Shown: one piece after another, positions 968 through 31,535 of the stretch
Position numbering within the stretch: position 1 is the first letter of the stretch
Layout: the number at the start of each line of letters is the position of its first letter
From: Chloroherpetonaceae bacterium
Lineage (GTDB): Bacteria; Bacteroidota; Chlorobiia; Chlorobiales; Thermochlorobacteraceae
Assembly (NCBI GenBank): GCA_033763895.1
Contig: JANRJQ010000014.1
Span: forward strand, 68,926 to 132,925
DNA length: 64,000 bases
Reading direction: 5' to 3'
The notes under the pieces: model-generated
What the model was told of the DNA's origin: nothing
What the model saw: the letters and a program-made list of their open reading frames with translations, nothing else
The model's database searches: none
Translations under genes and position numbers: made by a program

Positions 968-1534
968 TTACTCCCAAACTTCTTCATACACCTCTTCCAG
1001 TTTCAATCCCGCACCAATGGCGTCGAAATGTAACTCATCATTTGGGTTGGTGTACCGAGAGTAATGCCACTCATTTTCTCCCACTTTGTGATACCACTCC
1101 ACTTCCTTTTTTTCTTGTGATACCAAAAGATAATCTTTCAGCGAAGGTAGGTTCTGGTAACTCTTGAACTTCTCCCCGCGATCATACTTTTCGGTTGAAG
1201 GTGAAAGCACCTCAGCAATCAATACTGCATCCGCGGCAACATCGTCTTCAATGAATGATGAATTTCCGCAGATAACGGAGATATCGGGGTAAAAATAGCG
1301 CTCTTGTTTTCCAACAGTGATTTTCATTTCGTTGGCGTAAGTTTTGCAAGGTTTCCCCTTTAATTCCTTTCTAAGAGCCGAGGCAAGATTTATTGTTATA
1401 AGAATGTGCCTTTTTGAAGCTCCCGCCATCAACCGCAGTTCTCCCGAAACATACTCGTGCTTCACATCAGAGGCTCTTTCCAATGCCAAGTAATCGCTTG
1501 GAGAAAGAAGCGTTTCAAGTTGTTTTTCTGCCAT
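968..1534 (-). CDS. Uma2-family (DUF820) PD-(D/E)XK-like endonuclease
   Basis: 188-aa ORF. Its N-terminus (LSPSDYLALERASDVKHEYVSGEL) and the ...YFYPDISVICG... segment are typical of Uma2 family proteins. It lies 32 nt upstream of the ATPase on the same strand. Confidence 0.75.
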   Translation of the reverse strand: MAEKQLETLLSPSDYLALERASDVKHEYVSGELRLMAGASKRHILITINLASALRKELKGKPCKTYANEMKITVGKQERYFYPDISVICGNSSFIEDDVAADAVLIAEVLSPSTEKYDRGEKFKSYQNLPSLKDYLLVSQEKKEVEWYHKVGENEWHYSRYTNPNDELHFDAIGAGLKLEEVYEEVWE

Positions 1535-1603
1535 TATTCAAAAACTGAATTGATTTGAATTTCGTGCTTCTTAAATGAGTTGATTATTTTTTTTTGAATT
1601 TCC

Positions 1604-2248
1604 TTAAAGTCCTTTTTCTTTGAGAAAAGACTCTAATTTTTCTATCGTTAAGTTTTCGATGTAGTCGTAATTATTGACTTGCATTGCCGGCGCCATTCCG
1701 CAAGCGCCAAGGCACTCGGCTTCTTCCAAAGAGAGCAATCCATCAGGTGTGACATCGCCGTTTCCAATGCCGTATTTCTTCTTCACATAATTATAGACTT
1801 CATATCCGCCGCAAAGCATACAAGAAATGTTGGTGCAAATGGCCAAATGCGTTTTCCCCACTGGCTTTTTCCAATACATCGTGTAAAAGCTTGCCACACC
1901 AAAGACATCCGCTCTCGGCATTGGAATAGAATCTGCAACAAGATTAATGGCTTCAATCGAGAGCCACCCAAATTTTTCCTGTGCCATCCAGAGTGCGCGC
2001 ATCACCGCAGATTCTTTGGAGGGGTATCGCTCAACAAGGGCTTGTACCTTTTTCTTTTCATCTTCAGTGAAAAAAATAGATTCCGGAGTTTCGGAGTGGC
2101 GTGCATGAAACTCTTGAATTCCGGTTGAGGGTTCAAGGCTATCGCCGTGACTGCCGTGCGCAAAGCGCTGTTGCTTTGCGGCATGCTCGCCATTATGATG
2201 ATCCTGATGATGATGCCCGTTCTCGTTAGAGCTGTGTGATGCTGACAT
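1604..2248 (-). CDS. nuoE: NuoE-like [2Fe-2S] thioredoxin-fold subunit (NADH-quinone oxidoreductase subunit E family) with a His-rich N-terminal extension
   Basis: Cys pattern C-x4-C...C-x3-C (CTNISC ... CLGACGMAPAMQVN). The N-terminus reads HHHQDHHNGEH. No other nuo genes lie adjacent. Confidence 0.8.
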   Translation of the reverse strand: MSASHSSNENGHHHQDHHNGEHAAKQQRFAHGSHGDSLEPSTGIQEFHARHSETPESIFFTEDEKKKVQALVERYPSKESAVMRALWMAQEKFGWLSIEAINLVADSIPMPRADVFGVASFYTMYWKKPVGKTHLAICTNISCMLCGGYEVYNYVKKKYGIGNGDVTPDGLLSLEEAECLGACGMAPAMQVNNYDYIENLTIEKLESFLKEKGL

Positions 2249-2301
2249 ACTGCTGTAAAAATTTTCGATGATTACGATCGTTAAATAAAAATTGAAATGG
2301 C

Positions 2302-2859
2302 TTACTCGCCCAAAAACCGATTTAAATTTTCTAAGATATCGCCCCGCTCCAATTCTTGAAATTTCTTCGCCGTGCTTTTGAGATAAGGGATACTTAATTG
2401 TTTTCTAAAACGACGAATTAAATATTTTACATCAGCGATATCACGCTCTCTTGCAGCAAAGAGTTTAAAGATAAGCATATCTTCAGGCGTGGCGATATTG
2501 AATTCGGCATTCCCAAATGTTACTCTTTTTCCTCGTGAAATACTTAATTTTTCAAAACCACCAACTCCGGCAGCCACATCCACTTTTATACCGTTCACAT
2601 CGTCAATAAGTGGTAAAACAAAATATCTTTCAAAAAATACTAATGGGTTTTCTTTTACAGCTCTAAACCCATTTGATGTAAAAATATTTACGACTTTATT
2701 AAACTCGCCTATTTCTGTGTCAACCGATAGATCTATATCCGTGGTTTGGCGGGCGCTTTCATAATACATAACGGCAACGCCACCTATTACGATATAATCA
2801 AGATTACTTCTTTTACAGAGAGAATCTATTCTTGCGAGAGTTGCATCAAATCCTTCCAT
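2302..2859 (-). CDS. Minimal nucleotidyltransferase-fold protein (Pol-beta superfamily; possible toxin or antitoxin component)
   Basis: 185 aa with motif VIGGVAVMYYESARQTTDIDLSVD (GG...DxD). It overlaps the upstream small ORF by 34 nt. Confidence 0.55.
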   Translation of the reverse strand: MEGFDATLARIDSLCKRSNLDYIVIGGVAVMYYESARQTTDIDLSVDTEIGEFNKVVNIFTSNGFRAVKENPLVFFERYFVLPLIDDVNGIKVDVAAGVGGFEKLSISRGKRVTFGNAEFNIATPEDMLIFKLFAARERDIADVKYLIRRFRKQLSIPYLKSTAKKFQELERGDILENLNRFLGE

Positions 2860-3122
2860 AGTTCTTTATCTTTTCCGCATTCATAGAGTGCTTTTTGTCG
2901 TCTAACCCTTTCCCAAGTTTTTTCTTCTAATACTTCATCTGCTTGTACCAATTTCAACCAATTCAAAATATTTTCATTAGCAAAAATTAGAAACGACTCT
3001 CTTTCCTTCGAAGTAGAAAAACCATTTTTTTCTTCGTTATCACCATCCAAAAGCTCATATTTGGCTTTCATCGCTCGTACTTCTTCAAGCGTCATCGTCC
3101 AAGTCACTTCATGATTTTCCAT
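2826..3122 (-). CDS. Small hypothetical protein, translationally coupled partner of the nucleotidyltransferase
   Basis: 98-aa ORF on the same strand with a 34-nt overlap with the next gene. No recognisable domain. Confidence 0.4.
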   Translation of the reverse strand: MENHEVTWTMTLEEVRAMKAKYELLDGDNEEKNGFSTSKERESFLIFANENILNWLKLVQADEVLEEKTWERVRRQKALYECGKDKELWKDLMQLSQE

Positions 3123-6217: not shown

Positions 6218-6478
6218 TTATTTATCGTAATGGAATCTACATTTTGCAATAAGAATTGAGTCTTTGGTTGGTTGGTAAATCAATCGATGCTCTTCATCGA
6301 TTCTTCTCGACCAAAATCCTTGATATTTATGCTTTAAGGGTTCAGGTTTTCCAATGCCTGTGTAGGGATTACGTGCGATATCTAAAATAATTTCGTTGAT
6401 TCTTTTAACCTTTTTTGGATCGGTCTTTTGCCAAAACAGATAGTCTTCCCAAGCTTCATCACTAAAAACATAATTCAT
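6218..6478 (-). CDS. yoeB: YoeB/Txe-family toxin
   Basis: 86 aa: FSDEAWEDYLFWQKTDPKKVKRINEIILDIARNPYTGIGKPEPLKH...WSRRIDEEHRLIY...HY. It overlaps the antitoxin gene by 4 nt. Confidence 0.9.
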   Translation of the reverse strand: MNYVFSDEAWEDYLFWQKTDPKKVKRINEIILDIARNPYTGIGKPEPLKHKYQGFWSRRIDEEHRLIYQPTKDSILIAKCRFHYDK

Positions 6479-6732
6479 TCAACTTCAATCAATTTTCTTC
6501 GCTTCCCTTTTCCTGCCTTTAACTTTTTAATTGCTCTGTCTAATCTTTTCTCATTTGTTTTGGACGAAAGTTCATACTGGGTTGCATTCAGTGCGTTGTA
6601 TTCCTCAAGAGAGATAACAACAACCCCCACATCCTTTCCTCGATTGATAACCAATGTCTCGTAGTCATCGGTTACCTTATCAAGGTACTTTTTAACATCC
6701 TTTCGAAAATCAGAAACCGTGGTTGTAATCAT
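6475..6732 (-). CDS. yefM: YefM/Phd-family antitoxin
   Basis: 85 aa with TVSDFRKDVKKYLDKV...LVINRGKDVGVVVISLEEYNAL. It sits directly upstream of yoeB. Confidence 0.85.
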   Translation of the reverse strand: MITTTVSDFRKDVKKYLDKVTDDYETLVINRGKDVGVVVISLEEYNALNATQYELSSKTNEKRLDRAIKKLKAGKGKRRKLIEVE

Positions 6733-6737
6733 AAAAC

Positions 6738-6756
6738 TTGTACGTTTTTTTGTACA
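6738..6756 (-). promoter_or_regulatory. Candidate YefM-YoeB operator (two GTAC-core palindromes 12 bp apart)
   Basis: TTGTAC at 6738-6743 and TGTACA at 6751-6756, 6-24 nt upstream of the yefM ATG. The E. coli yefM-yoeB operator has TGTACA cores with 12-bp centre spacing (recalled from the literature). Confidence 0.4.
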
Positions 6757-6837
6757 TAAAATAGTTAGCAGCTTCTATACTTTCCAAATATCGATGTAGA
6801 GTACTTAAACCGTTGTTTAACTTTATTTTCGATAGTA

Positions 6838-6894
6838 ATCAATCACCCCGTATTCTTCATTCCTGCTGCGATTCCGTTCACGCTTGTGCGTAAA
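6838..6894 (-). repeat. Displaced duplicate of the ppc 3' end (last about 17 codons, the stop and 5 nt)
   Basis: About 57 bp match 7458-7514 with 5 mismatches. It translates to LLRTSVNGIAAGMKNTG*, against LLRASVNGIAAGMKNTG* in the intact gene. Confidence 0.85.
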
Positions 6895-6932
6895 AGCACG
6901 GGTACAACCCTACCCAATTCATCACTCGAATT

Positions 6933-7145
6933 TCAAACAGGATTTCCTAACCGAATTGATAAAGGGAGTTTTGGGTTCATTTGACTTACTTTGAGAATAG
7001 AAAACCCGATTATTTCCCCATTCATATTTACTTTTTCCATTATTGCATCATTCTCTGTTTCTCTAAAGAAACCTTTTTCCTTTTCAAAAAGTACTTCTAA
7101 GAAATCTGCCTCTTTGTCAAACCAAATTGTTATTTCTTTTTCCAT
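6933..7145 (-). CDS. DUF2283-family small protein (putative antitoxin)
   Basis: 70 aa: WFDKEADFLEVLFEKEKGFFRETEND...NGEIIGFSILKVSQ, the typical DUF2283 pattern. It overlaps the upstream ORF by 16 nt. Confidence 0.75.
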   Translation of the reverse strand: MEKEITIWFDKEADFLEVLFEKEKGFFRETENDAIMEKVNMNGEIIGFSILKVSQMNPKLPLSIRLGNPV

Positions 7146-7453
7146 AACTCTACCCCAGTCTTTATTTTATTGGTAAAATAAGTTGTTACAATAAAGTTAT
7201 CTTTATCACTTTTTTTTACAACAACACATAAATATTTACTCCCAACCTCAGTTTGTTTATACCACTTGTAGTACAACTCTATCTCACTGTCTGATTTTGA
7301 TAATGTTATCGAATCGGGATTCACTAATGTTTCTTCAATTAATGCGAAACTTTCTTGCAATTCGGGATGGTTTGTTTCAATGTGATTCCATCGTTCTTTT
7401 GAAAGTCTTATCGTGTGATTTCTCCTATCTACGAAAAAATGATTCTCATCCAT
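7130..7453 (-). CDS. Small putative toxin (DUF4258-like/RelE-barnase-like candidate) paired with DUF2283
   Basis: ATG at 7453 (MDENHFFVDRRNHTIRLSKERWNHIETNHPEL...VVTTYFTNKIK). The tracked ORF start at 7462 is a TTG abutting the ppc stop. The family assignment is tentative. Confidence 0.5.
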   Translation of the reverse strand: MDENHFFVDRRNHTIRLSKERWNHIETNHPELQESFALIEETLVNPDSITLSKSDSEIELYYKWYKQTEVGSKYLCVVVKKSDKDNFIVTTYFTNKIKTGVELWKKK

Positions 7454-7462
7454 AAATATCAA

Positions 7463-10342
7463 TCACCCCGTATTCTTCATTCCCGCCGCGATTCCGTTCA
7501 CGCTTGCACGTAAGAGCGTCAGCAAAGCCTTGCGCTGCTCATCTTCCGGCTCAAGAGCGCGAAACTGCTTCAACGCCGAAATTTGAATAAAGCTAATCGG
7601 GTCGAGATACGGATTGCGCAAGGTTATAGACTTTTGAAGCGTGAGGTCGTTTTCCAAAAGCGACTTTTGCTTGGTGAGCTCTAAAATGATTTTTTTCGTT
7701 CGCTCATATTCCCCTGAAATGACTTGCATCATACGCTCGGCATTGGCTTTATCGTGTGCGAGCTCCGCATACGAAGCCGCCACAAGCATATCCGATTTGC
7801 ATAAAATCATTTGAACATTATCAATCAGTGATTTGAAGAACCGCCACTTCTCATACATTTCTTGCAATGTTTCAAGCGATGTCCCCGCTTTCATTGCCGC
7901 TTCAATTCCCGAGCCCACGCCAAACCAATTCGGTAATGCTGCGCGGTTTTGCATCCACGAAAAAATCCACGGTATGGCACGCAGATCTTCAATACGCTTC
8001 TTCGCTCCGCGCCGTGCAGGCCGTGAGCCGATTTCCATTTGCTCGATGATATCAATCGGTGTGGCTTCTAAGAAAAAGGGCAAAAAGTCTTTATCGTCAT
8101 ACACCAAGCCTCGGTAAGCATTTTTAGCTTCCTCCGAAATCTTCGCCATTACGGTCTCCCACGCTTTAGGGTGCTTTGGCGAATGATGCTCAAGGCTCGC
8201 CACCATTACTGCAGAGACAATCCGTTCAAGATTCCGATTGGCGATGTGAGGCAATAAGTATTTGGCCGAGATGATTTCACCTTGCTCGGTGATTTTAATT
8301 TTTCCGTCAATCGTTCCCTCCGGCTGAGCCAAAATAGCTTGATGCACCGGCGCCCCGCCGCCGCGGCCGACCGTTCCGCCACGGCCGTGAAACAGCCGCA
8401 ATTTAATGCCGTAGTGTTCGGTAAGTGCCTTTAATCGGAACTGTGCGTTGTAAAGCTCCCAATTTGACGCAGCGACTCCTCCATCCTTGCTCGAATCGGA
8501 GTAGCCGATCATAATTTCCTGCACATTGCCACGGGCTTCCAAATGCTTACGATATACGGGGTTTTCAAAGAGCGATCGCATTAAGGTTTCGGAGCGTTGA
8601 AGATCGTCGATGGTTTCAAACAGTGGAACTATGGTTAAATCGCTTTCATATCCATCGTGGTCGTCTTGGCGTATCAAGGCAGCTTCTTTGGCGAGCAGCA
8701 AAACTTCGAGCACATGACTGGCTTTTTCCGTCATGCTGATGATGTAGCTTTGAATGGCTCTTGGAGAAATGAATTCCAATATTTTTCGAGCCTGACGAAA
8801 GACAGAAATGATTTCATTTGTTTCTTCACTAAAGGTCAGTTTGAAGGGAATCATTGGTCTTCGGCTATTGATTTCATTTGATAGCCACTTAATTTTTTCT
8901 TCTTCCGAGAGCTCTGAATATGATTTTGAAATTATCCTTAACTGTGCGGTGATTTCACCAATTGCCGTGGTATGCTTGGTGCTATGTTGCCGAAGATCGA
9001 GCGTTACGAATGAGAATCCAAAGATTTCTACTTGCCTAAGCATCGGTTCAAGCGTGTGCTTGGCAAGCCGAATTGTTTTAGGCTGCTTCAAACTTTTATA
9101 GATCACGCGAAGATCATCGATGTATTCCTTTTCTGAATGATAAGCATGCTCATGCAAATGATCTTTATCAACCGATTCAAGCGTACGCTGTAATCTGTAA
9201 TACATGTATCGGAGCTTAATCCGGTAGGCTTCGCTTCGATTCTTCCCCGCCCACTCTTTTTCAATATGTTCCTTTCCAATTACTTCATCATCTTTTTGAA
9301 TCGAGGCTAAGAGTTCATCAGAGACCTTCACTCTCGCGGTTGAAACACTAAGGCTCATAATGGCGGCTTCGAGTGACGCCAAGTATTTTTTGAGTATCAC
9401 GGTTTTGAGATAGCGCAAGGTTTCGCGCGTGACATCGTGCGTGACGAACGGATGCCCATCGCGGTCGCCACCCGTCCAAGAGTGAATCCGCAGAAATGGC
9501 GGAATGTGAAATTCAGCTTCGGGGTAATGCGCTTTAAGAGATTGCTCCAATTCGTGATAAAGCGCCGGGATAATCGGATAGAACACACGCTCGAGGTAGT
9601 ATAACTGACTTTGAACCTCGTCTTTCACCGTAAGTTTTGTAGATCGCGCTTCTTCAGTTTGCCATAACGAAGTAATTTGATAGTAGAGTTCTTCCATCAT
9701 TTCCATTCGTTCGCGCTCGCTGTGGTTTGGGTTATCGAGCCGCTCTAAAATGGTTGCAATATGACGCCGCTTCCGAAGAATGGTGTGGCGCAATGCCTCG
9801 GTGGGGTGAGCCGTAAGCGTGGGAAGAATTTCAAGATTTGAAAGGAGGGCTTTAATGTCATCTGCCTTTATCCCGCGCGATTTCAACCCGCGAATGGTTT
9901 CTTCAATTGCTCCCGGAAGAATATTCCCGCCTGCGGCTGCTTTGCGTTCGCGGCGAATAAAGTGATACATATCGGCCACATTGAGCAAATGAAAATATGT
10001 TCCGAATGCACGGATTAAATCAAGTGATTCTCTTTGGCTTAAGCCTTTAATGATTTCAGTGAGTGCCTTTACCCCACCATCAAATTGGTCTTGATTGGAG
10101 GATGACGGTGATTTACTTCGAAGATCTTTACAGAGCAGACGAATTTTTTCTTCTAACTCTAAAAATGAACTTCCTTCTTGCTCAGTAAGCACATCGCCCA
10201 AAATATTCCCGAGCATTTTCACATCATCGTGCAAGCGATTCTCGCCGTTTTGAAATAGATCATGTTGATGCGAGTCGATTTTCGCGCTTTGTTCTAAATG
10301 GCTTTGTGGAACAAGGATTTCAGGTTGGGTTTCTGTTTTCAT
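7463..10342 (-). CDS. ppc: Phosphoenolpyruvate carboxylase
   Basis: Contains the canonical motifs TAHPTE, GYSDSSKDGG, FHGRGGTVGRGGGP-like, and the C-terminal ...NGIAAGMKNTG. Start set to the ATG at 10342 (MKTETQ...), preceded by AAGGAG. The 42 upstream codons of the tracked ORF look spurious. Confidence 0.95.
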   Translation of the reverse strand: MKTETQPEILVPQSHLEQSAKIDSHQHDLFQNGENRLHDDVKMLGNILGDVLTEQEGSSFLELEEKIRLLCKDLRSKSPSSSNQDQFDGGVKALTEIIKGLSQRESLDLIRAFGTYFHLLNVADMYHFIRRERKAAAGGNILPGAIEETIRGLKSRGIKADDIKALLSNLEILPTLTAHPTEALRHTILRKRRHIATILERLDNPNHSERERMEMMEELYYQITSLWQTEEARSTKLTVKDEVQSQLYYLERVFYPIIPALYHELEQSLKAHYPEAEFHIPPFLRIHSWTGGDRDGHPFVTHDVTRETLRYLKTVILKKYLASLEAAIMSLSVSTARVKVSDELLASIQKDDEVIGKEHIEKEWAGKNRSEAYRIKLRYMYYRLQRTLESVDKDHLHEHAYHSEKEYIDDLRVIYKSLKQPKTIRLAKHTLEPMLRQVEIFGFSFVTLDLRQHSTKHTTAIGEITAQLRIISKSYSELSEEEKIKWLSNEINSRRPMIPFKLTFSEETNEIISVFRQARKILEFISPRAIQSYIISMTEKASHVLEVLLLAKEAALIRQDDHDGYESDLTIVPLFETIDDLQRSETLMRSLFENPVYRKHLEARGNVQEIMIGYSDSSKDGGVAASNWELYNAQFRLKALTEHYGIKLRLFHGRGGTVGRGGGAPVHQAILAQPEGTIDGKIKITEQGEIISAKYLLPHIANRNLERIVSAVMVASLEHHSPKHPKAWETVMAKISEEAKNAYRGLVYDDKDFLPFFLEATPIDIIEQMEIGSRPARRGAKKRIEDLRAIPWIFSWMQNRAALPNWFGVGSGIEAAMKAGTSLETLQEMYEKWRFFKSLIDNVQMILCKSDMLVAASYAELAHDKANAERMMQVISGEYERTKKIILELTKQKSLLENDLTLQKSITLRNPYLDPISFIQISALKQFRALEPEDEQRKALLTLLRASVNGIAAGMKNTG

Positions 10343-10489
10343 AGCGGTACTCCTTAGGTTAATTATTGGTTTCAATGTACGGATTGACCCATTGAGATTC
10401 AAAGCCGTTTCTATCTCTCTCCGAATCGAGTTTTCATTGTATTTTAGGATTAACTCGGTGGTTATCACCCGAAAATCTTAGGATCATCA

Positions 10490-13132: not shown

Positions 13133-13273
13133 ATGGAAAAAAATCTTCAATCACAACCGGAAGCGTCATCGTCACAAACCGTGAAACTTGTCCTTTACTG
13201 GCTCATTGTGGGTGTGCCCTCGCTGTGGGCGGTATGGCAAGTGGTGGTGAAATCGGCGGTGCTTTTTAAGTAA
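13133..13273 (+). CDS. MFS transporter small subunit (46-aa single-TM peptide)
   Basis: Not in the ORF track because it is under 60 aa. The ATG follows the MFS stop codon (13130-13132) directly. Sequence: MEKNLQSQPEASSSQTVKLVLYWLIVGVPSLWAVWQVVVKSAVLFK*. Small peptides of this kind directly downstream of OFA transporters are annotated as MFS small subunits. Confidence 0.65.
   Translation: MEKNLQSQPEASSSQTVKLVLYWLIVGVPSLWAVWQVVVKSAVLFK
13199..13273 (+). repeat. Copy 1 of the 75-bp small-subunit 3'-end repeat (part of the intact gene)
   Basis: tggctcattgtgggtgtgccctcgctgtgggcggtatggcaagtggtggtgaaatcggcggtgctttttaagtaa. Confidence 0.95.
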
Positions 13274-13321
13274 TAGCAGGATTAACTCGCATTAACCTAT
13301 ATCTTGATTTTATTCTTGACC

Positions 13322-13371: not shown

Positions 13372-14814
13372 TTACTTGATAAGCATCATCTTTTTTGTTT
13401 CAGTGAACGACCCCGAGACCAATTTATAGAAGTAAATGCCCGACGCAAGATTGTTTCCATTAAAGGGAATCGTGTAAACACCTGCTTCTTTAACCCCATT
13501 TTCTAAAGTTGCAACTTCTCTTCCCAACAAATCATAAATCTTCAACTCAACCCGCGACGCAGACGGAATGTTGTATCGAATTGTGGTGGTTGGATTAAAT
13601 GGGTTCGGTGTGTTTTGCAACAACTCGAATTTTCTTGGCAAATTTTGAACTGTATTCTCAATCACTCTATCTCCAATGCCTATTGCAAATTCTCCAAATG
13701 CTGTTAAATCATTAACGATAACATTCGGGAAAATTTTCAATATGGTTAAGCGTTGAAATGCGCTCTCGACATTTTTCCACGCTGAGGTTTTATTTGGACG
13801 GTAAAGAATTTGTACTTTTTCTGCTGACGGATTGCCTTCAACTTCTCCAACATTCACAATGAGATTATATCTTAACCCTACCGTTGAAATGCTTCCTGTT
13901 TGTTCAATCACCCAATATCTTGAGTTGGAGAGCGATTCAATACCCGGAGGCAATGCGCCGACTAACGTAGGATTTTGTTCAATTGAGCCTCTAATTTGAA
14001 AGGTTGACTCCCGGTTTTGTGTCACATTCAACATAAACTCTTTAGAACCCAAAAGATATGCCCCGGTTTCATTTTGCCTTATTGTTGTGTTAGCATTATT
14101 ATCCTTAAGTGACACCAATTGGGTAAAGGGATCAAACGAAAAACTAAGTTGTGGTTCGTTTCCTGTGTTTATTTTTCTAATAACGAATGGAATCCTATTT
14201 CCACTTAGGCTTCCCCTAATAACCGAATTAAATTGCGTTAAATCAAAAGGATCACTCAACTTTGTACCGCCAATATATAATTCTTGAATAGTATTGTTTT
14301 CCGGGAAGGAGATATTTTCAATTGGAACGCCATCTACGATTACCATATTTATAGATGGAGCATTTCTTAGATCGACTTCTCTCAAAGGCATCTCTGAAAC
14401 CCAAAAACTAGTTAAACTTGGTTTATTTCCAAGCAGTAAAGTTTTCGCGTTTTTTAATCTCCAAACTTGAAGGAGCTGAATTTTTTCATTTTGAGTGAGA
14501 TCAATTTCCTCAACCAACCCATCTGATAAAGCAAATTGCGTCAACTCTTTGAATGCTTCAATTCCTTTAAAGGATCTAATATTTCTTGCTTCGTTTATTA
14601 CGAGAGGATCAAAAAACGATATGCTGGTTATATCACTAACCTTTGGATTAGTAAAGGTAACGGTTTGTGCTGCATCATCTTTCGTGACGCCTGTGAAGCT
14701 TTTTACAAGTACTTCTCTGAAATTTTGATCCTGAATACTGACCGTTTGGGCATTCAGCGAAATCGCGGAAGCCAGCAACAAAACAAAAAATGTATTTTTC
14801 ATCATATTCATCAT
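13372..14814 (-). CDS. T9SS-sorted leucine-rich-repeat surface protein
   Basis: Signal peptide (MMNMMKNTFFVLLLASAISLNAQ), LRR segments, and a C-terminal T9SS domain (PNPFNPTTTIRYNI...GIYFYKLVSGSFTETKKMMLIK). The start lies among several Met codons at 14802-14871. Confidence 0.8.
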   Translation of the reverse strand: MMNMMKNTFFVLLLASAISLNAQTVSIQDQNFREVLVKSFTGVTKDDAAQTVTFTNPKVSDITSISFFDPLVINEARNIRSFKGIEAFKELTQFALSDGLVEEIDLTQNEKIQLLQVWRLKNAKTLLLGNKPSLTSFWVSEMPLREVDLRNAPSINMVIVDGVPIENISFPENNTIQELYIGGTKLSDPFDLTQFNSVIRGSLSGNRIPFVIRKINTGNEPQLSFSFDPFTQLVSLKDNNANTTIRQNETGAYLLGSKEFMLNVTQNRESTFQIRGSIEQNPTLVGALPPGIESLSNSRYWVIEQTGSISTVGLRYNLIVNVGEVEGNPSAEKVQILYRPNKTSAWKNVESAFQRLTILKIFPNVIVNDLTAFGEFAIGIGDRVIENTVQNLPRKFELLQNTPNPFNPTTTIRYNIPSASRVELKIYDLLGREVATLENGVKEAGVYTIPFNGNNLASGIYFYKLVSGSFTETKKMMLIK

Positions 14815-15024
14815 TCGAGCAATTTGGGTTAAAAGAAAAAAGGCACAACAACTTTTATTAAACATAAACATTTTATTAAAAAGTTTTCATAAAAATTTTC
14901 TAACGCCGTTTTCTGTTATTTTTGTTTAATTAAAGACCTCTCTTGCAAGCATTACTGGAAAAATTGAAATGTGTTTAAGGTTTCACTAAAGGCCGCAAAT
15001 AAGTTTATAAGATAAGCAGAGAAT

Positions 15025-15099
15025 TGGCTCATTGTGGGCGTGCCCTCGCTGTGGGCGGTTTGGCAAGTGGTGGTGAAATCGGCCGTGCTTTTTAAGTAA
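15025..15099 (+). repeat. Copy 2 of the 75-bp small-subunit 3'-end repeat (truncated, no start codon)
   Basis: It encodes the identical 24 aa plus stop. The three differences from copy 1 are all silent. An in-frame TAA lies at 15013-15015 just upstream. Confidence 0.9.
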
Positions 15100-15141
15100 A
15101 AAAAATGGGGAATATCAATGCCCCACCTGATGAGAACGGGT

Positions 15142-15660
15142 TCACCGATTTAGAAAGTACTCTCGAAAATCTGCCATTTCTTTTCGCTCAAGCGCCACAT
15201 ATTTTTCAAAGATTTGTTTCCCAACTTGATGTTCCAACGCTGAGATCCCAACATCTATCAACCTTAAACCGGTGCTGGTGAGAAAAATATTATCAAAGGC
15301 TAATCCGCCGATATTAGACGGTCTTTTCAGATCGCGGTGTACAAATCCTGCTCGTTGTAACGCTGTCAATTCATCTTCGAACACTTCGACCCACAGTTCT
15401 CTTCTTTCAACTTCCTATGCTCTGAAATCAATCGGATAAAGCCGCCGCATAACAAGCATTTCTACTTGAATCGGTTCATTGAATTCTAATCGGAGAAATT
15501 TGACGACCAGATGATTAATCTCATTGGCAAACTTCATCTTTGCAGCTTCGCTGCCGATTTCAGAGCGCGAATCCCCAATAAATAATTTGCCAACTTCCGT
15601 GTCCCTTAAACCAATGACTGTATTATTCGCACCTGCTGAAAGTTTGCGTGGGTATTTCAT
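15142..15660 (-). pseudogene. Minimal protein-kinase-like gene interrupted by one in-frame TAG
   Basis: The two tracked ORFs (15415-15846 and 15142-15384) are in the same frame, separated only by a TAG at 15415-15417. The downstream half has the catalytic-loop-like FVHRDLKRPSN and LIDVG (DFG-like). The upstream half has SAGANNTVIG...VGKLF (G-loop/Lys-like). The likely ATG is at 15660. Confidence 0.55.
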
Positions 15661-15765: not shown

Positions 15766-15879
15766 ATGATGATGAGCCTTCACAAGGTGCAATTTGTGAT
15801 TTATTGGCTTATTGTGGGCGTGCCCTCGCTGTGGGCAGTATGGCAAGTGGTGGTGAAATCGGCGGTGCTTTTTAAGTGA
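15766..15879 (+). CDS. Possible second, shorter MFS-small-subunit-like ORF (37 aa) containing repeat copy 3
   Basis: MMMSLHKVQFVIYWLIVGVPSLWAVWQVVVKSAVLFK*. The last 24 aa are identical to those of the gene at 13133-13273. Homology extends a further 7 codons upstream (VQFVIYW vs VKLVLYW). No adjacent transporter gene. Confidence 0.35.
   Translation: MMMSLHKVQFVIYWLIVGVPSLWAVWQVVVKSAVLFK
15805..15879 (+). repeat. Copy 3 of the 75-bp small-subunit 3'-end repeat
   Basis: It encodes the same 24 aa. Differences from copy 1 are silent (ctt, ggc, gca) and the stop is TGA instead of TAA. Confidence 0.9.
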
Positions 15880-15897
15880 TTAAATTGACTTTTTTTA

Positions 15898-16962
15898 TTA
15901 AGTTTCTTTTTTAATCTCATTGATAAATTCAGAAATAGGTCTAACATAATCCTTTAAACCCACATGCTGGCTTGCGTATTTTAATTTTCTACTATTGTCT
16001 GGCAAGAAAAATATTTGCCTTTGTTCTCCGAGAAGAGTCAGTTTATCATCAGACAAATCCTCATCGAAGGTCACTACATGATAAATATATTTCACTTTAA
16101 ATCTGCTGAATATTTCTTTTGAACTGCTTATGTTCTTCCATCTTTCACGAAGGGTTCTTTTGCAGGATATTCCTATAACCCATCCATCTCTACATTTGAC
16201 CCAATTGTCAACTTCTAAATCTGCTTGAAAATGACTTGGTGCCTCTGCTCTACTAATGCCGTAATAATCAAGAATAAAATCTGTAACATCTTCTAAACTT
16301 CCCCCCGCTCGTGATTTTCTTTTTTGGCCTGCTCTCCGTTCGAATTCTTGACAAAAGGCAGTCAGAATAATGTCTTGATCATAATTACCAAGATTTAACT
16401 TATCATTAAGGAAAACTCTTAAAGAACCAAATGCTTTTATTATTTCTGTCCTTTCAGCATTCAAACAGCCCTTTACTCCTAAATCATCCCATAAATTAAT
16501 AATTGTTGCAAGACCAATTGAACCATTTATATCTAAAAAAGCCTTAGCAATCGATTCTGTATATATTTTATCATTACTTGGAATATTTGAAATTGCCTGA
16601 TTAAGAGGCATTACAACTTGTTCACAGGTTAAAATAAATGCACTCATTTCATCGTAAGTCTGAATATCATCATTTAAATCTTCCAATAATTTTTCAATTC
16701 TCATTTTTTTTGAGGAAGATTTTTCAAATTTTCTTCTCAAAATTTCGTTTAATGTCCTTTTTTGATGAATAAAAACTTCCGATTTATTCTTAAATGATTC
16801 ACTTATAATTTTTAAACTAGATGTTATCTCTAATAATAATTTGTTGTTTTTACCAATAGATCCATATTTATCACCACTTATTAGCATTCTTGAAAACCAA
16901 TAAACTTTATGCCAGTGATTTTGTAATTCTTCAATTACTGCCATTAAATTCCTCCATTTCAC
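15898..16962 (-). CDS. Type II restriction endonuclease candidate (PD-(D/E)XK-like), family not identified
   Basis: Last gene of a tightly overlapping M-M-R operon. Motifs: KRKSRAGGSLEDV and ADLEVDNWVK...ISCKRTLRERWKN. Very AT-rich. Confidence 0.6.
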   Translation of the reverse strand: MKWRNLMAVIEELQNHWHKVYWFSRMLISGDKYGSIGKNNKLLLEITSSLKIISESFKNKSEVFIHQKRTLNEILRRKFEKSSSKKMRIEKLLEDLNDDIQTYDEMSAFILTCEQVVMPLNQAISNIPSNDKIYTESIAKAFLDINGSIGLATIINLWDDLGVKGCLNAERTEIIKAFGSLRVFLNDKLNLGNYDQDIILTAFCQEFERRAGQKRKSRAGGSLEDVTDFILDYYGISRAEAPSHFQADLEVDNWVKCRDGWVIGISCKRTLRERWKNISSSKEIFSRFKVKYIYHVVTFDEDLSDDKLTLLGEQRQIFFLPDNSRKLKYASQHVGLKDYVRPISEFINEIKKET

Positions 16963-17710
16963 TGAATGTAATAAATGATCTTTCCTTAAATTCTAAAATC
17001 CTTTTTTCCGCCATTTCTACATATAGAGGTGACTTATCAATACCGATATAATTTCTTCCATTTATAATTGCTGCTAAAGCGGTCGTACCCGACCCAATAA
17101 ATGGATCTAAAATAAGTTTTGCTCTTGTAGATGAAATGATTCTGTCGATTAGAGCGACAGGGAAAGGTGCGGGATGAGCATTTTTCATTTCTTGTTTGAA
17201 TTCCCAAACGTCTCCAAAAGAATTAGCCTTTGGTAAAAGTTTAAATTTCGGTTTTGCAATCATATAGATTACTTCATATGTCGGAAGAAAATAACCGGGA
17301 TTAAAATTTATACCTCCCTTCCTTTTCCATATAATTATTTGACGAACTGGAAAATCCTTAACTATGTCTTCACGATCTTGCAGTAAACCGTCCTGCACAC
17401 GCCATTTGTGGTTATAAAAAATCGCCCCTTCATCGTTAATTAATCTCATCATTTCGGTCAAACATTCTCTTTGCCACTTTACATATTCATCATGTGGCAT
17501 ACAATCATCATGATGACTATAACCATTTACTAATGATGCATTTTTCCATTTACCGCCACGCCCATCTTTCATGCCGTTTCCTGTAGAATTTTTTAGGTTA
17601 TAAGGTGGTGATGTAACGACTAAGTCAATACTATTTGTTGGCAATTGTTTCATTATTTCTAAACAATCACCTACATAAATCTTGTTAAGATCTATTGAAT
17701 TATTTTTCAT
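16931..17710 (-). CDS. DNA methyltransferase, beta-class N4-C/N6-A type (SPPY motif)
   Basis: 259 aa. Motif IV is VVTSPPYNL and motif I is DPFIGSGTTALAA. The order IV then I indicates the beta class. Confidence 0.9.
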   Translation of the reverse strand: MKNNSIDLNKIYVGDCLEIMKQLPTNSIDLVVTSPPYNLKNSTGNGMKDGRGGKWKNASLVNGYSHHDDCMPHDEYVKWQRECLTEMMRLINDEGAIFYNHKWRVQDGLLQDREDIVKDFPVRQIIIWKRKGGINFNPGYFLPTYEVIYMIAKPKFKLLPKANSFGDVWEFKQEMKNAHPAPFPVALIDRIISSTRAKLILDPFIGSGTTALAAIINGRNYIGIDKSPLYVEMAEKRILEFKERSFITFSEMEEFNGSN

Positions 17711-18677
17711 AAAAATTTCTAACCTTTTTCAATTTAAATTTCAAACTATTCCTCTCCCAAAACACCCCATCCGCGAAGCCTTGAATACCCGTTTCCTTTT
17801 CAGCCAATTCCAAACGCTTTTCTGCCCAAACGCCATATTCCTCATTCAATTCAATCCCGATGTAGTTTCTCCCCAGTTTTTTTGCAACCACCGACGTTGT
17901 TCCCGACCCCAAAAACGGGTCAAGCACCACATCGCCCTTTTTGGAAGAGGCTAAGATGAGTTTCGCGATGAGCTTTTCCGGCTTTTGCGTGGGATGGTCG
18001 GTATTTTCGGGCATCGACCAATACGGCACACTGATATCATCCCAAAAATTAGAGGGAAATGTGATTCTGAAATTCCCGTCCTCGGTTTCTTCCCAATCTT
18101 TTGGCTTTCCGTCTATTTTATAAGGCGCAATCACTTTGCGTTTCATTTTCACGGCTTCGACATCGAAGTGGTAACTGTTTTTATCCTTTACCCCAAACCA
18201 AATGTCTTCCATCGCATTTTTCCAATTGCTTTGTGCGCCGCGTCCCTTTTCGCGCTGCCAAGTAATTCGGTTCATCACCACCAAATGCGCTTCCATTACT
18301 TCTTGCAGGGCGGCGGTGCACTTCCAATCGCCGCAGAGATACAGCGAGCCGGTATCTTTGAGCAGCCGAACGATTTGTGGAAACCACGTTCTTAAGTAGG
18401 CGCGATAATTTTCGGTATCCGTTTCTTTGAATTGAAACCCGTTGAAATTTTTGCTGAGGTTGTAGGGCGGGTCAAGAATGATAAGGTCAGCAATTTTTTC
18501 AGGGAGTTTTTCAACGATGGGGAGCATATCGCCGCATAGCGTATTGTTGAGAACAGCATCGAGAGATAGTTCACTTTCATCTTTCACCCGAACCAACTTC
18601 GAGGCGAAGCGTGGGTATTCCACGGCATCAACCGTAAGCGTTCGATTCCGCTCCGCTCTGATATTTTCGGTTTCCAT
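17700..18677 (-). CDS. DNA methyltransferase, beta-class N6-A/N4-C type (DPPY motif)
   Basis: 325 aa. Motif IV is ILDPPYNL and motif I is DPFLGSGTTSVVA. It overlaps the next methylase gene by 11 nt. Confidence 0.9.
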   Translation of the reverse strand: METENIRAERNRTLTVDAVEYPRFASKLVRVKDESELSLDAVLNNTLCGDMLPIVEKLPEKIADLIILDPPYNLSKNFNGFQFKETDTENYRAYLRTWFPQIVRLLKDTGSLYLCGDWKCTAALQEVMEAHLVVMNRITWQREKGRGAQSNWKNAMEDIWFGVKDKNSYHFDVEAVKMKRKVIAPYKIDGKPKDWEETEDGNFRITFPSNFWDDISVPYWSMPENTDHPTQKPEKLIAKLILASSKKGDVVLDPFLGSGTTSVVAKKLGRNYIGIELNEEYGVWAEKRLELAEKETGIQGFADGVFWERNSLKFKLKKVRNFYEK

Positions 18678-18766: not shown

Positions 18767-18926
18767 TGATAGAAGTGCATTCAGGATTCCGAACGCGTGT
18801 TGCTTGACTAAATGACCAACCAAAAGGCATGTCATTTCGAACGGAGCTTTAGCAGAGTGAGAAATCTCCAGTGCGCGGGGAATCGGAGATTTCTCACAGC
18901 GAACTTGACGAGCATCTTCAATCCTC
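18767..18926. repeat. Nested-palindrome dispersed repeat element (REP/MITE-like), copy 1
   Basis: The outer inverted repeat atgtcatttcga (18819-18830) / tcgaaatgacat (18915-18926) encloses the hairpin gagaaatctcc...ggagatttctc. Confidence 0.6.
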
Positions 18927-18944
18927 GAAATGACATACACTTCT

Positions 18945-19063
18945 ATTTGGTGGCTTGCAGGATTCCGGACAAGCCGGAATGACCAACCAATAGGCATGTC
19001 ATTTCAAACGAAGCAACGCGGTTTCAAGAAAGTTGGGAAATCTCAAGCGTGGGGAAGGTTGGA
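18945..19063. repeat. Same repeat family, copy 2 (diverged)
   Basis: caggattccg..atgaccaaccaa.aggcatgtcatttc.aacg.agc...gaaatctc...ggagatttct aligns with 18771-18887. Confidence 0.6.
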
Positions 19064-19314
19064 GATTTCTGACATTTTTTTGTTTTATCTCCGTGTGATT
19101 CGAGTACTTGCCTTGTGAACTTTGTGTTTTTAAATCCGAAACACGGAGGTCACTGAGAAAAACCACAGAGAGCACAAAGGATTATTGCGTCTTCGCGGCT
19201 TTGCGAGAAACAGTAGCCTCGTAAGGTGGTTTCAGCACTTCGAAAAGATTAGGGCGACACGGGCAAAAACACATAATCTCCTTGCGATATGGTAAGAAAA
19301 GGGAGATAAAAAAA

Positions 19315-20936: not shown

Positions 20937-21012
20937 ATGATTATTATTTAAAAATAATTACAATTTAATTTATTGATATTTCTAAGACTTTGAATTAAAA
21001 ACGGCAATCGAC

Positions 21013-21264
21013 TTCTGCTTGAATTATTTATACTCGAGTCTTCAAATTCACAACCTCTGTATCACATTTTCATACTCTTGTTACAAAAATAGTGACTGCT
21101 GTGTTTCTTTTTAATACGCAAGTCATAAAATCGATGACCGCTGTATTACATTTTCATACTCGTGTTACAAAAATAGTGACTTCTGTATTACTTTTTCATA
21201 CGCAATTCATTAAATTGACGACCGATGTATCAACTTTTCATAAAGTAATACTGTTAAAAATGGA
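21013..21264. repeat. Tandem array of six contiguous 42-bp units (84-bp higher-order period)
   Basis: Units start at 21013, 21055, 21097, 21139, 21181 and 21223. The consensus is roughly nnctgtattacnttttcatacncnngtnanaaaatngtgac. Units 1 and 3 match at 39/42, and units 2 and 4 at about 34/42. Confidence 0.9.
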
Positions 21265-22077: not shown

Positions 22078-25000
22078 TTACTTCACAAGCATCATTTTCT
22101 TTGTCGCGGTGTTTTTTCCGGAACGTATGGCGTAAAAATAAATACCACTCGAAAGCTGCGACGCATTGAACCGCGCCTCGTATTGCCCTGCTTCTTTGCG
22201 CTCATTGACAAGCGTTTGCACTTCGCGCCCCAAAATATCATACACCTTCAGCACCACAGCCCCGGCTTCGGCGATTTGATAGCGAATGGTGGTGGAAGGG
22301 TTAAATGGATTCGGGTAATTTTGATCCAATGAAAATTGATACGGCGTACGAACCGAAATCGGCTTGTGCTCCGTGGCCACACCGGAATAGCTCACATCAT
22401 AAAGTTTGTAGTGATACATCGTGCCGGGCTTTAGACTCCGTTCATCTTCGTATTGATAGGATTTTCCAACGGAAGCATTCCCTGCGCCGCGGAGTGCAGG
22501 ATGAGTACGGAAATCGGCAATGGTTTCATAAGGCCCCGATTCGGTGAGAGCGCGTTTCAATACATAGCCTTGATTATCCCGCTCGGAGGCCGTTGCCCAC
22601 TGAAGTGAAATTTTCGTTTCAGTTGCTTTCGCTGTAAACGAAGTCAGTTCAACGGGTAGTGGGTTATCGCCTAAGGTGCCGATGGCAAACTCGCCGAGCA
22701 ATGACATATTCTTTGCAATCATATAATTTCCTTTGAAGTCGAAAATCACAAAGCCGTAGTCATTAACACTTTCCCAAAATGCCGTTTCATCATCGCGGCG
22801 AAGCAGTTGAAGAGTACTTATGTTGGTAACACCTGTGATGGGTGTAAGATCAAGAACGAGGTCGAAATTCATCGTATAGCTTGGCGTGGTGAGGCTCCAA
22901 TATTTATCGGCAGAAATTCCCGGAACCCCTAAAGGCAATGAGCCATTGATGGTTGGGGAGACTCCGGCGAAAGTCGTGAGGGGAATATCGCCACCATTTG
23001 AGTTGATTGCCACACGAATGATAGCCCCAGTTTTGCCAATGATAAACCCGCCCGTTTGCCCATCGAGGATGGTTGGGTTAATAATTTCAGAGCGCAAGAA
23101 ATCGGTAATTGTCCCGAAATCAACTTGTAAAGTTGTTGGTGCTGGGTCGGCTGTTAATACAATTGCAAGAGGATTATCTTCTGCACGGAGGTTATCTAAT
23201 AACGGGTTTGCCCCTGTGTTTAACACATTCAACAAATTAAACTCACAGTTCAACCGATTAAGAAGCGGTAAATCGCTGAGGTCTAATTCGGTAAGTTGGT
23301 TATCATAACAATATATTTCTTCAAGTAAGGGATTTTGTGAGAGATCAAGCGATGTTATTTGATTTTCATGACAATCCAACACTCTTAAAAATGGATTGCC
23401 TGAAGTAACCAAAGTGGTAAGAGAATTATCTCCAATGTTTATGGATTCCAAACGAACAAAGGCTTCAAGCCCTGTTGAATTTACTATGCCACTAAAACCT
23501 AATGATAAGTCTGTAATTGCCGCGGCTGCTGAAGGATTGGTGATAAAATTTGCTCCGTCAAAAGTGATTCCATAATCGGCTGCTAATTTATTTCTAAAGT
23601 TTTCATCAGGCACTTCTCTTGGTCCGATTTTATAAGATGCCGGAGCTGTATCAAAAAAGGTCGTAACTGAACCGGAAGGAAAAGGCAAGGCTGAAACCGT
23701 TAAGAAAAAAGGCGTGGGATTTCCTTGGATATCCAATGACTCAAGAACCGTATTGGGTGTAATATCTAACTCGGTAAGTTGATTATTAAAGCACGCCAGT
23801 TCGATAAGCCCTGTAGCGGGCGATAAATCCAAAGTGGTCAGTGGATTATCGTTGCAGATTAAGTTGGTTAAGGTGGAAGTGCTTGGAAGCGTGAGCGAGG
23901 TAAGTGAATTGAAACTGCAATCCACAAGTTGCAATGTTGTGTTATCCGTTAGATTGAGAGTTGTTAAAGCATTGTATTGGATACGCAAATCAGATAACGA
24001 CGAAAGTCCGGTTAAGTTTACGGAAGCGATATTACTTTCGCTACAGCGAAGGGTCACCAAATTCGGATTTCCGGTGAGGTCAAGGGTTGTTAAATCGGTA
24101 TTGTTGCCATACAGCAATGTAAGGGCAGAAAGCATTGAAACATCAATCGATATGATTGGGTTTGTCCCAAAATCCAAGTAAGTAAGTGCTGTATTGGAAC
24201 TGACATCAAGGCTGGGTAAAAGATTATTTGGGCAGCGAAGATCATTGAGCGCTGTCAAGGTTGAAACATCAATGGAGGTAAGGTCATTATCGCCGCAAGC
24301 TAAAAAAGTAAGATTCGGATTGTTCAGTGTTAATGTGGTTAAATCGTTCAGCGAGCAATCTAAGTAAGTGAGATTGGCGTTTGAGGAAACATCTAAAGAA
24401 GTTAAAAGATTAGCAGAACATCTTAAGTTAGATAAATTTGAATTTGATGAGACATCAAGGGTATTTAAAGAATTTCCCGCACAGAACAATGTCCCTAAAG
24501 TGCTTGTTGAAGGAAGCGTAAGCGTAGTTAAGTCATTATCATGAGCATAAACTTCAATAAGCGCAGTGTTTGCCGATAAGTCTAGTGATGTTATCGAATT
24601 GACTTGACAGGAAAGTGTTTGTAATAAAGGGTTATTGCTGAGATCTAATGAAGTAAGTGCATTTCCAGAACAGTATAAAAGTTGCAATGAGGGTAACATT
24701 GAAAGATCTAAAGAAGTTAGAAGATTGACATCACAGCCTAAAACTCCTAAAGATGTGTTTCCACTCAAATCAAGTGTAGTAAGATAATTATAGTCACAGT
24801 AAAGTGTAATAAGACCTGTGAAGAGCTTAATACCTGTCAAATCAAGAATGTTTGAATCGCTAACATCTAGTTCATTAATCCCCGCCACAAACGGCAAATT
24901 GGTTACCCTATTGCTCATATTGAAGGTTACGCCTTCTGCAATCAATGCCGTGCGGAAATTGGCATCGGGCACTTCAAGGTCGCTGCCCAAGTATTTGATG

Positions 25001-28008: not shown

Positions 28009-28177
28009 AAAATGAAATTTGTTGCACTTTTGTTGGTTTCTTGATATATCAATATAGAATAATTTCAACTCCATAAATGCCGTTTTTTTCGAAACTTGAC
28101 ACTTTTTTAGCGCAAGTTGTTTGCATTATCTCATTTTCACCAACCCTTTTTCAATGGGTTATTGATCATTTCCAGTC

Positions 28178-30661: not shown

Positions 30662-30697
30662 GGATATCGTAATTTGATTTCTAAAAAATCGAATCGT

Positions 30698-31402
30698 TTA
30701 CTTCTTCTTCACGATTCTTGTCACAAACACCACATGACTCCAATCATCTTTCTTCTTTTCAATATGCTTGGTGGCTTTGAAATTCTTTGAGGCCACTTCA
30801 TATTGGAGTAGAGTCGATTTAACCCATTTTGGTTTAATGGTTAGCCCTTGGTCTTGCCAATGATCTTCGTCAAAATTGTAGAGCAATTGCTTTTCAAGTT
30901 TGGGTACTTTCCCTGCAACATTCCAAATTTGAATTCGGCTAAGCAGATCGGGGTTTTGTGGGTAAAATGAAAAGGTGGCTAATCTTCGTTTATCGGGAGA
31001 GATTATTGGGAGAACATCAAACATCATTTTATTGCCATTGTCTTTTCGAACCAAGAGGTACTGGCGGCGTTCTTTGTTTCTGAATTGAAAGGCGAAGCAA
31101 TTGATAGACGGGAGAAAATCATAAAAGTAGTAGGCTTCACCGGCTTCATCTTTTGAGACCAATTCAATCTCTTCTTTATTTCTGAGAGTTACGACTAACG
31201 TTTGAGCGTCTCTTCGTGAAACAAATTTTCCAAACCTTTTTAATTGATATTCTTCGATGTAAGCGGCCTTTTCATCAAGATCGGTAAGATGCTTGCCGAG
31301 CGTATCCATCACGGCCACTTTGCTTTTCTTCGCTTTTTGTGCGAAGGTCTCGTGTGGTAATGTCAGCAGAATGAAAAAACAAATCAATAAAAGTCGAACC
31401 AT
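30698..31402 (-). CDS. Secreted hypothetical protein
   Basis: Start moved to the Met giving MVRLLLICFFILLTLPHETFAQ (signal peptide). No family recognised. Confidence 0.5.
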   Translation of the reverse strand: MVRLLLICFFILLTLPHETFAQKAKKSKVAVMDTLGKHLTDLDEKAAYIEEYQLKRFGKFVSRRDAQTLVVTLRNKEEIELVSKDEAGEAYYFYDFLPSINCFAFQFRNKERRQYLLVRKDNGNKMMFDVLPIISPDKRRLATFSFYPQNPDLLSRIQIWNVAGKVPKLEKQLLYNFDEDHWQDQGLTIKPKWVKSTLLQYEVASKNFKATKHIEKKKDDWSHVVFVTRIVKKK

Positions 31403-31535
31403 AGTCGATAAATAGTTTTGGATGATAGTGATGCTGACTGCCGAAGGTTTTTTAGGGAAACTGCCTTTACCTCGATCCGGATACAACGATGATAATGTAT
31501 GTTTGTAAAGGAATCTAAGGGAAAATTTTACAATC

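Follow-up and report, generated by a model that had tools for sequence, protein, structure and literature searches.

We analysed a 64-kb stretch (hereafter the window) of a 361-kb contig from a Chloroherpetonaceae metagenome-assembled genome (MAG), in which a small predicted toxin–antitoxin (TA) pair stands directly behind ppc, the gene for phosphoenolpyruvate carboxylase, and is flanked by two copies of the 3' end of that gene. The intact ppc open reading frame (ORF) spans 7463–10468 on the minus strand, and homologues of its protein carry PF00311. Its functional end, copy B of the direct repeat (7458–7517, minus strand), comprises 17 codons, the stop and 5 nt, and the protein terminates in LLRASVNGIAAGMKNTG. 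The C-terminal NTG and stop are kept in 47 of 47 related loci. Copy A (6838–6897, minus strand) is a displaced fragment that encodes LLRTSVNGIAAGMKNTG, again followed by a stop and 5 nt, with no ppc sequence upstream of it. The copies are separated by 560 nt (6898–7457) holding only two ORFs, the co-oriented toxin and antitoxin candidates. An earlier sequence-only reading of this DNA had described the content correctly, while its length of about 563 bp becomes 560 bp. It had also placed the toxin ORF within 10 nt of the ppc stop. The ATG indeed lies 9 nt past the stop, and an alternative TTG start abuts it.

Aligned over 60 nt, copies A and B differ at five positions. Codon by codon, four of these are synonymous and one exchanges Ala and Thr, exactly as first proposed, and reading frame, stop codon and peptide are all preserved. 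At the differing codons, copy A reads ACA (Thr), CTT, CGC, GCA and GCA. The five differences fall within the 5' 34 nt of the repeat. The remainder is a perfect 26-nt match (6838–6863 and 7458–7483) covering the last seven ppc codons, the stop and 5 nt. This 26-mer occurs twice in the window, compared with none of 100 shuffles, and the ungapped alignment of the two copies scored 45 (shuffle mean 8.3, sd 1.0). The insert is foreign in base composition (32.1% GC versus 45.7% for ppc), and the drop in GC matches the insert exactly. No third copy of the ppc end was found in the window, including beyond the neighbouring yefM-yoeB genes. A tblastn match extending copy A to 27 codons (6846–6926) was rejected as chance. 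The 10 additional codons share about 50% DNA identity with ppc, which is too diverged to belong beside a 92% segment and less ppc-like than orthologues of 60% identity.

The same arrangement was recovered from other sequencing runs. Two Logan contigs (L048 and L051) are identical to the window across the junctions they cover, and L048 carries ppc, the TA pair, copy A and yefM-yoeB in one contig. As three assemblies agree on these junctions, the ppc structure is not an artefact of MAG assembly, and the direct repeat flanking the TA pair is real. Across the window, no recombinase domain was found among the 48 ORFs scanned, whether integrase, excisionase, transposase or integron integrase (intI), which bears out the earlier description of the cargo as a bare TA pair.

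The first gene of the insert (7130–7453, minus strand) encodes a 107-aa toxin candidate matching Pfam PBECR2 (E 4.6e-9; 37 bits, cut-off 27.1). The second (6933–7145, minus strand) encodes a 70-aa antitoxin candidate matching DUF2283 (E 1.8e-6; 28.4 bits, cut-off 23), and its start overlaps the toxin 3' end by 16 nt. PBECR is a predicted BECR-fold, metal-independent endoRNase family (PMC5512222). In the three closest toxins, the motifs ETNHPE and T-x-Y-x-T are invariant. An AlphaFold2 model of the toxin, built from an alignment of three sequences only, reached a mean pLDDT of 83.6, and its matches to folds in the PDB were all sub-threshold. The best was to 6cp9, a CdiA-CT toxin–immunity entry that we take to be a BECR-type tRNase (probability 0.92, E 0.07), and HigB2 appeared further down the list. 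This modelled fold is compatible with a BECR-type toxin, not decisive for it. Sequence searches of the PDB returned no match for either protein.

The pairing of these two genes is conserved. We collected 80 metagenomic loci containing toxin relatives (43–55% identity), and an overlapping DUF2283-type ORF followed the toxin in 61 of them as judged by sequence motif, a count for which most of the remaining loci were not checked one by one. The same overlapping partner was present in L049, in L050 and on Leptospira plasmids. The toxin family is a large one: a single collection yielded at least 398 relatives, and the phage collection yielded none. Members also reside on plasmids of Leptospira and cyanobacteria, which are possible vehicles for the cassette. 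We accept the pair as a putative type II TA module with a toxin-first gene order, presumably toxic and addictive to its host.

With the toxin ATG only 9 nt past the ppc stop, read-through transcription from ppc probably covers the pair. A promoter scan detected no sigma-70-like site in the ppc end. Among the relatives, the upstream ORF was co-oriented with the toxin in 31 of the 36 loci where such an ORF lay within 400 nt, and the toxin began within 30 nt of it in 8 of 45. The orientation and proximity of these ORFs fit expression by read-through. The relatives in L122 and L127 have a sigma-70-like promoter, read by eye. At the other end of the insert, a 35-nt tail separates the antitoxin stop from copy A (6898–6932, minus strand). 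It contains most of a weak terminator-like hairpin (6899–6916) with its T-run in copy A; the hairpin count is at chance level.

To place the ppc locus among its relatives, the metagenomic loci were scored for direct repeats with one copy no more than 350 nt upstream of the toxin and the other no more than 350 nt downstream of the antitoxin. Flanking repeats were present in 11 of the 56 loci with enough flank, corresponding to 9 of 49 distinct loci. Their scores ranged from 24 to 156, against shuffle maxima of 10–13. Control pseudo-cassettes attained such scores in 2 of 382 cases on the same contigs and 0 of 965 on the 47 ppc loci (at most 0.5%); ORF calling in this survey was crude, and the controls were placed at random, without matching to gene boundaries. 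The repeats are 38–258 nt long and consist of local sequence, and the DNA between them always measures 525–763 bp, essentially the gene pair alone.

Five of the nine distinct repeat-flanked loci are two-copy duplications of different local targets. At L107/L109, the repeat consists of the last 27 codons, the stop and 2 nt of a cation-efflux (CDF) gene (85 nt, 82% identity), a geometry like that in the window. At L090/L092, 97 nt (97% identity) are duplicated from the 3' portion of an ORF encoding a GidA C-terminal domain. The remaining three targets are the promoter and 5' part of a gene upstream of a TumE toxin (L103, 258 nt), intergenic DNA (L089, 59 nt), and the interior of a RadC-like gene (L118, 38 nt). 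The other loci (L060, L088, L122 and L127) hold the TA pair within multi-copy repeat arrays, not simple two-copy duplications. These arrays (L127, 2344–7551; L122, 915–1923; L088, 3731–5781; L060, 90–984) have repeats of 90–175 nt between gene cassettes. The repeats of L088 and L060 are strongly palindromic (attC- or REP-like), so that these two arrays may be integron-like; those of L122 and L127 are not palindromic.

Two of the surveyed targets showed additional structure. The L090 (1–4703) and L092 (1–4573) contigs repeat with a period of about 4,051 bp, each unit containing the TA pair, two copies of the GidA-C-domain ORF end and an 872-aa DEAD/Cas3-like helicase. This unit may be a small circular replicon or a tandem amplification, and in the former case the 'mnmG-like' ORF may lie on the small replicon. 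In L103 (672–1869), L106 (540–1206) and L113 (133–879), the same cassette and the same TumE-upstream neighbour occur in three arrangements: neighbour 5' part, TA pair and full neighbour; TA pair and neighbour; and neighbour 5' part, TA pair and something else. These arrangements suggest shuffling among adjacent TA cassettes, and L103 may be a recombinant between L113-like and L106-like arrangements.

Comparison of near-identical cassettes in different contexts delimited the unit that they share. In each case, the common part was the two genes plus at most 50 nt. For example, L115 and L117 are 96% identical over 554 nt, ending 40 nt upstream and 2 nt downstream of the genes. L076 and L084 share 94.5% identity over 586 nt, and L103 and L106 share 89% over 508 nt. 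The L107 cassette is about 82% identical to four others, from 13–26 nt before the ATG to 2–27 nt past the stop. Since the shared part is the two genes with a short margin, we conclude that the mobile unit is the bare pair and that the flanking repeats are target sequence. This comparison argues against gene ends as a constant component of the mobile unit, contrary to one part of the sequence-only reading, which had the element carrying its own ppc end. That the end came with the cassette at this locus is still plausible, as the mostly synonymous differences fit a working end from another lineage.

A second locus in the window, 6 kb from the ppc insert, has the same gene-end geometry with non-TA cargo. 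The intact MFS small-subunit gene (13133–13273; NF047966) provides copy 1 from its 3' end (13181–13274, plus strand). Copy 2 (15025–15100, plus strand) is a truncated gene end of 24 codons and a stop. Copy 3 (15787–15880, plus strand) is a further end of this gene; it seems to close a full-length small-subunit gene that carries a 2-nt deletion (by eye). A 1.75-kb cassette between copies 1 and 2 bears a gene for a protein sorted by the type IX secretion system (13372–14871, minus strand), and a 0.67-kb cassette between copies 2 and 3 bears a kinase-like gene with one in-frame stop (about 15142–15660, minus strand; start by eye). Both cassettes are low in GC, and homology of the gene-end copies ceases 1–2 nt past the stop. 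No other MFS gene remnants were found between the small-subunit copies. With this geometry repeated around non-TA cargo, gene-end duplication is neither encoded by nor specific to the TA pair, and it is not specific to ppc. The proposal of a ppc-specific integrating element consequently fails, as related cassettes also occupy other targets with other duplicated sequences.

The differences between repeat copies are biased toward silent sites. Across four independent coding pairs (ppc, MFS copy 1 versus copy 3, the L107 efflux gene and L090), we counted 21 synonymous and 8 non-synonymous changes, where random single-base changes would be 24% synonymous. The probability of this result is about 1e-7 if the downstream fragment purely decays, and 4e-4 if silent drift of the functional copy is allowed as well. 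The truncated MFS copy 2, which cannot function, differs from copy 1 by three synonymous changes only. In L107 and at the MFS locus, the differences are spread over the whole repeat, up to the stop codon. Given this synonymous bias, the copies look like alleles that diverged within working genes, rather than like a gene end and its decaying duplicate.

Searches of genome, metagenome, viral and protein collections found neither an empty site nor a donor ppc allele. A scan of the genome collection with the ppc C-terminus gave closest matches of 59–60% identity (Ca. Thermochlorobacter), with no conservation of downstream synteny. The top match in a protein search with ppc was 52% identical; the source protein itself was not returned by that search. 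For the ppc locus, only contigs from the same population were recovered, and a degenerate pattern of the 26-nt core had no matches in metagenome and viral contigs. For a lineage-specific 191-aa neighbour, the searches gave only a relative of 74% identity on a contig of 1.2 kb and one of 44% in Thermochlorobacter, where ppc is not close by. In the nearest other genomes, the ppc end agrees with either copy at no more than 35–39 of 60 nt, and copy A therefore derives from the ppc of this genome or of a close relative.

In our reading, the ppc bracket is more likely a scar left by host-mediated recombination than a pair of att sites. What stands of the sequence-only reading, which had an element integrating into the ppc 3' end and supplying a replacement, is its geometry: the insert follows the ppc stop directly, between the intact gene end on its upstream side and the displaced fragment on its downstream side. 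Our leading interpretation, to which we give somewhat less than an even chance, is that a horizontally acquired, predicted type II TA cassette was inserted 3' of ppc by host recombination, free of any recombinase of its own, and with a history of two steps. In the first, a bare cassette would land behind a gene by an illegitimate event; most related loci are indeed without flanking repeats. In the second, the cassette would spread to related lineages on DNA that also bears the donor gene end, here the last 60 nt or so of ppc. The flanking copies would then be two alleles, one resident and one donor.

We infer the route of recombination in outline. Host homologous recombination would join the incoming DNA to the ppc end already in place, with the junction probably falling in the 26 identical nt, either by a single crossover of a circularised fragment or by one-ended break repair followed by end joining. 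Either route would yield an intact ppc, the cassette and a displaced ppc-end fragment. Homology would end just past the stop because there the donor switches to the cassette, and the recipient to its own downstream DNA. Such a history would account for the allele-like differences, the end of homology at the stop, the variable repeat length and the lack of a recombinase. Once in place, the pair would probably be retained, since its loss (e.g. by recombination between the 60-nt repeats) would free the toxin.

Several points weigh against this two-step history. The searches gave neither an empty site nor a donor allele, so that either copy may be the resident one. The copies at L103 differ mostly by non-synonymous changes. 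At ppc, the confinement of the five differences to the 5' 34 nt would fit one-sided replacement, although this non-uniformity is marginal (P about 0.06, by hand). Synonymous bias could also follow a true in-situ duplication if either copy were overwritten by alleles from relatives. Near-identical cassettes occur in different contexts without gene ends, so that the first arrival at every new target needs a separate step that the two-step history leaves unexplained.

A bolder extension, which we consider doubtful, is that gene ends serve as recombinase-free capture sites, at which small foreign cassettes, each with a gene-end copy of its own, are added time and again by host recombination. This would amount to an integrase-free analogue of the integron. 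The window would then display arrays of cassettes parted by gene-end copies, a single one at ppc and two at the MFS small-subunit gene. PBECR2–DUF2283 pairs would be habitual riders in such arrays because addiction blocks loss between the repeats.

The synonymous bias also tells against a true target duplication. Under this rival, a bare cassette would have been captured at a staggered double-strand break or a replication template switch in the ppc 3' end, and fill-in would have duplicated 60 nt, with initially identical copies later replaced by relatives' alleles or mutated. The cassettes common to unrelated contexts agree with this, as they end within 50 nt of the two ORFs and lack flanking repeats. 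So do the long, variable repeats of local sequence (38–258 nt), as in restriction–modification (R-M) cases (PMC2853133), and the position of all five ppc differences toward the rest of ppc, as if a replacement tract had ended inside the repeat. A ratio of 21:8, with the non-functional MFS copy 2 showing the same bias, is however unlikely for a duplicate decaying in situ, and in L107 and at the MFS locus the differences run through the whole repeat to the stop codon. Identities of 80–88% would further need very old insertions, and no enzyme making staggered breaks of 40–260 nt is known here. We judge this explanation to be rather unlikely, while leaving it a real share of the probability.

Site-specific integration into the ppc 3' end, with the repeats as attL and attR and a replacement end in the element, is in our view unlikely. 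The 560 bp would then have remained after deletion within a larger element, or would be a CIME-like unit that lacks a recombinase and is mobilised in trans by an integrase from another locus. The geometry of intact end, cargo and displaced end is classic for such elements, TA modules are typical stabilisers of them, and the tandem MFS gene-end copies resemble accretion at an att site. The 26-nt identical stretch could be a crossover core, but it is equally expected from homologous recombination or conservation, and a search of the metagenome and viral collections with its pattern gave no hit. Among the 48 ORFs scanned, none showed an integrase, excisionase or transposase domain. The three cassettes of the window are compact single transcription units with spacers of 5–150 nt, and three independent remnants of this form are unlikely. 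The flanks of related cassettes have nothing in common, being a CDF gene end, a GidA_C-domain ORF, a RadC-like gene or intergenic DNA, and no att site is shared among them.

An account without any insertion signature, in which the repeat is a chance match, an artefact of assembly or a local tandem duplication that had nothing to do with the TA pair's arrival, is very improbable. MAGs can be chimeric and 60 nt is a short repeat, but no shuffle held two 26-mer copies. Three assemblies have identical junctions, and one of them covers the complete locus in a single contig. The reading frame, the stop codon and the peptide are conserved between the copies, and GC falls exactly where the insert lies.

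Just downstream of copy A lies a low-GC yefM-yoeB pair (6218–6732, minus strand; Pfam PhdYeFM 58 bits, YoeB 127 bits), beginning 105 nt past the repeat. Before the insertion, it would have been the direct neighbour of ppc. Upstream of the pair (about 6740–6760), TGTACA and CGTACA half-sites resembling an operator (by eye) overlap a promoter-like site at 6756–6728. Further conflict-system genes occupy 968–3122, downstream of an acyl-CoA synthetase gene. These include a Uma2-family endonuclease gene (968–1534) and a DUF6036/AbiEii-like nucleotidyltransferase gene (2302–2859) that overlaps a 98-aa partner ORF (2826–3122). No flanking duplication was seen around this group.

On the other side, directly after MFS copy 3, a low-GC (25–37%) R-M cluster (15898–18677) encodes two N6_N4 DNA methyltransferases and a 354-aa ORF with a weak EcoRII-C match. 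Past this cluster, two tandem units (18811–19074; spacing 167–176 nt) each contain a 41-nt hairpin-forming segment (TGAGAAATCTCC...GGAGATTTCTCA). About six head-to-tail 42-nt units fill an intergenic region between two minus-strand ORFs (21010–21261), and a 1998-aa ORF (22078–28074) contains a long run of 147-nt (49-codon) repeats. Beyond it (28178–33179), an Lhr-type helicase gene and an ATP-dependent DNA ligase gene stand on opposite strands, with a 262-aa ORF that has no Pfam match between them. This region could be a break-repair or end-joining module, and would be relevant if insertion proceeds via break repair.

How bare TA and defence cassettes move without mobility genes is an old open question. 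As a single locus, the ppc insert is ordinary in its consequences; with the gene end intact, its effect on ppc itself is probably small. Through its recurrence and its allele-like repeats, the family offers a useful way to study how bare defence and addiction cassettes move. Its small size (about 550 bp) and its abundance, with the relatives counted above, render it tractable for population-genomic and experimental work.

Among known systems, the prophages e14 and phage 21 integrate into the 3' end of icd in E. coli and carry a replacement end, and the CIMEs of Streptococcus thermophilus are recombinase-less derivatives of integrative elements. Like the ppc locus, these combine an intact gene end, cargo and a displaced end, and their cargo often includes stabilising TA genes. 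They rely on a dedicated integrase and fixed att sites, in contrast to the ppc locus, where no integrase was detected among the scanned ORFs and the relatives have unrelated flanks. TA cassettes of chromosomal integrons are likewise bare and promoterless, with similar repeats on either side, and a resemblance to them is apparent in L060 and L088 (palindromic repeats) and in L122 and L127 (arrays). The window repeat differs in being ppc coding sequence with no attC-like fold. Its fold energy was no better than that of shuffles (z -0.48), and we rejected an attC-like structure for it.

A parallel in mechanism is Campbell-type integration, a single crossover of recircularised DNA with one homologous segment. 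A conjugation assay in E. coli gave mostly integrants of this type, in which shortened plasmid molecules had recircularised and the homologous locus was duplicated over 109–950 bp (Amarir-Bouhram et al. 2011, PMC3240628). As at ppc, the product has a flanking direct duplication of variable length and requires host recombination only. The assay used a laboratory plasmid with identical homology in E. coli, whereas the ppc repeat is 60 nt long and 92% identical.

The closest parallel in structure is the 'insertion with long target duplication' of R-M complexes (Nobusato et al. 2000, Gene 259:99; Furuta, Abe & Kobayashi 2010, PMC2853133). In these cases, small cassettes without mobility genes are flanked by local direct repeats of 46–423 bp that are 93–100% identical and often span a start or stop codon, leaving the target gene intact (PMC2853133). 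They come mostly from naturally competent species, and their mechanism is unexplained (PMC2853133). A later review describes the mode for R-M systems only (Mruk & Kobayashi 2013, PMC3874152), and our literature search found no report of insertion with long target duplication for TA systems. By the definition of Furuta and colleagues, an insert is shorter than 20 kb and without mobility genes, as is the 560-bp insert with its two TA ORFs. The repeat exceeds 30 bp and is local rather than dispersed, as is the 60-nt repeat with its two copies in the window. The definition also demands R and M homologues in the insert and a genome with the empty site. The ppc insert carries a PBECR2/DUF2283 pair instead and is known with the site occupied alone, and it thus shares the geometry without being a strict member.

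The ppc locus is therefore a recombinase-free cassette insertion of a known, unexplained class, here carrying a TA pair. R-M insertion with long target duplication has been known since 2000 and remains unexplained. Together with the repeats at 9 of 49 distinct related loci, the ppc locus extends this insertion mode to a TA family. It differs from the R-M cases in that its copies diverge mostly at synonymous sites, which suggests two alleles. Such allele-like flanking copies point to host recombination with imported homeologous gene ends, and not to a simple staggered cut.

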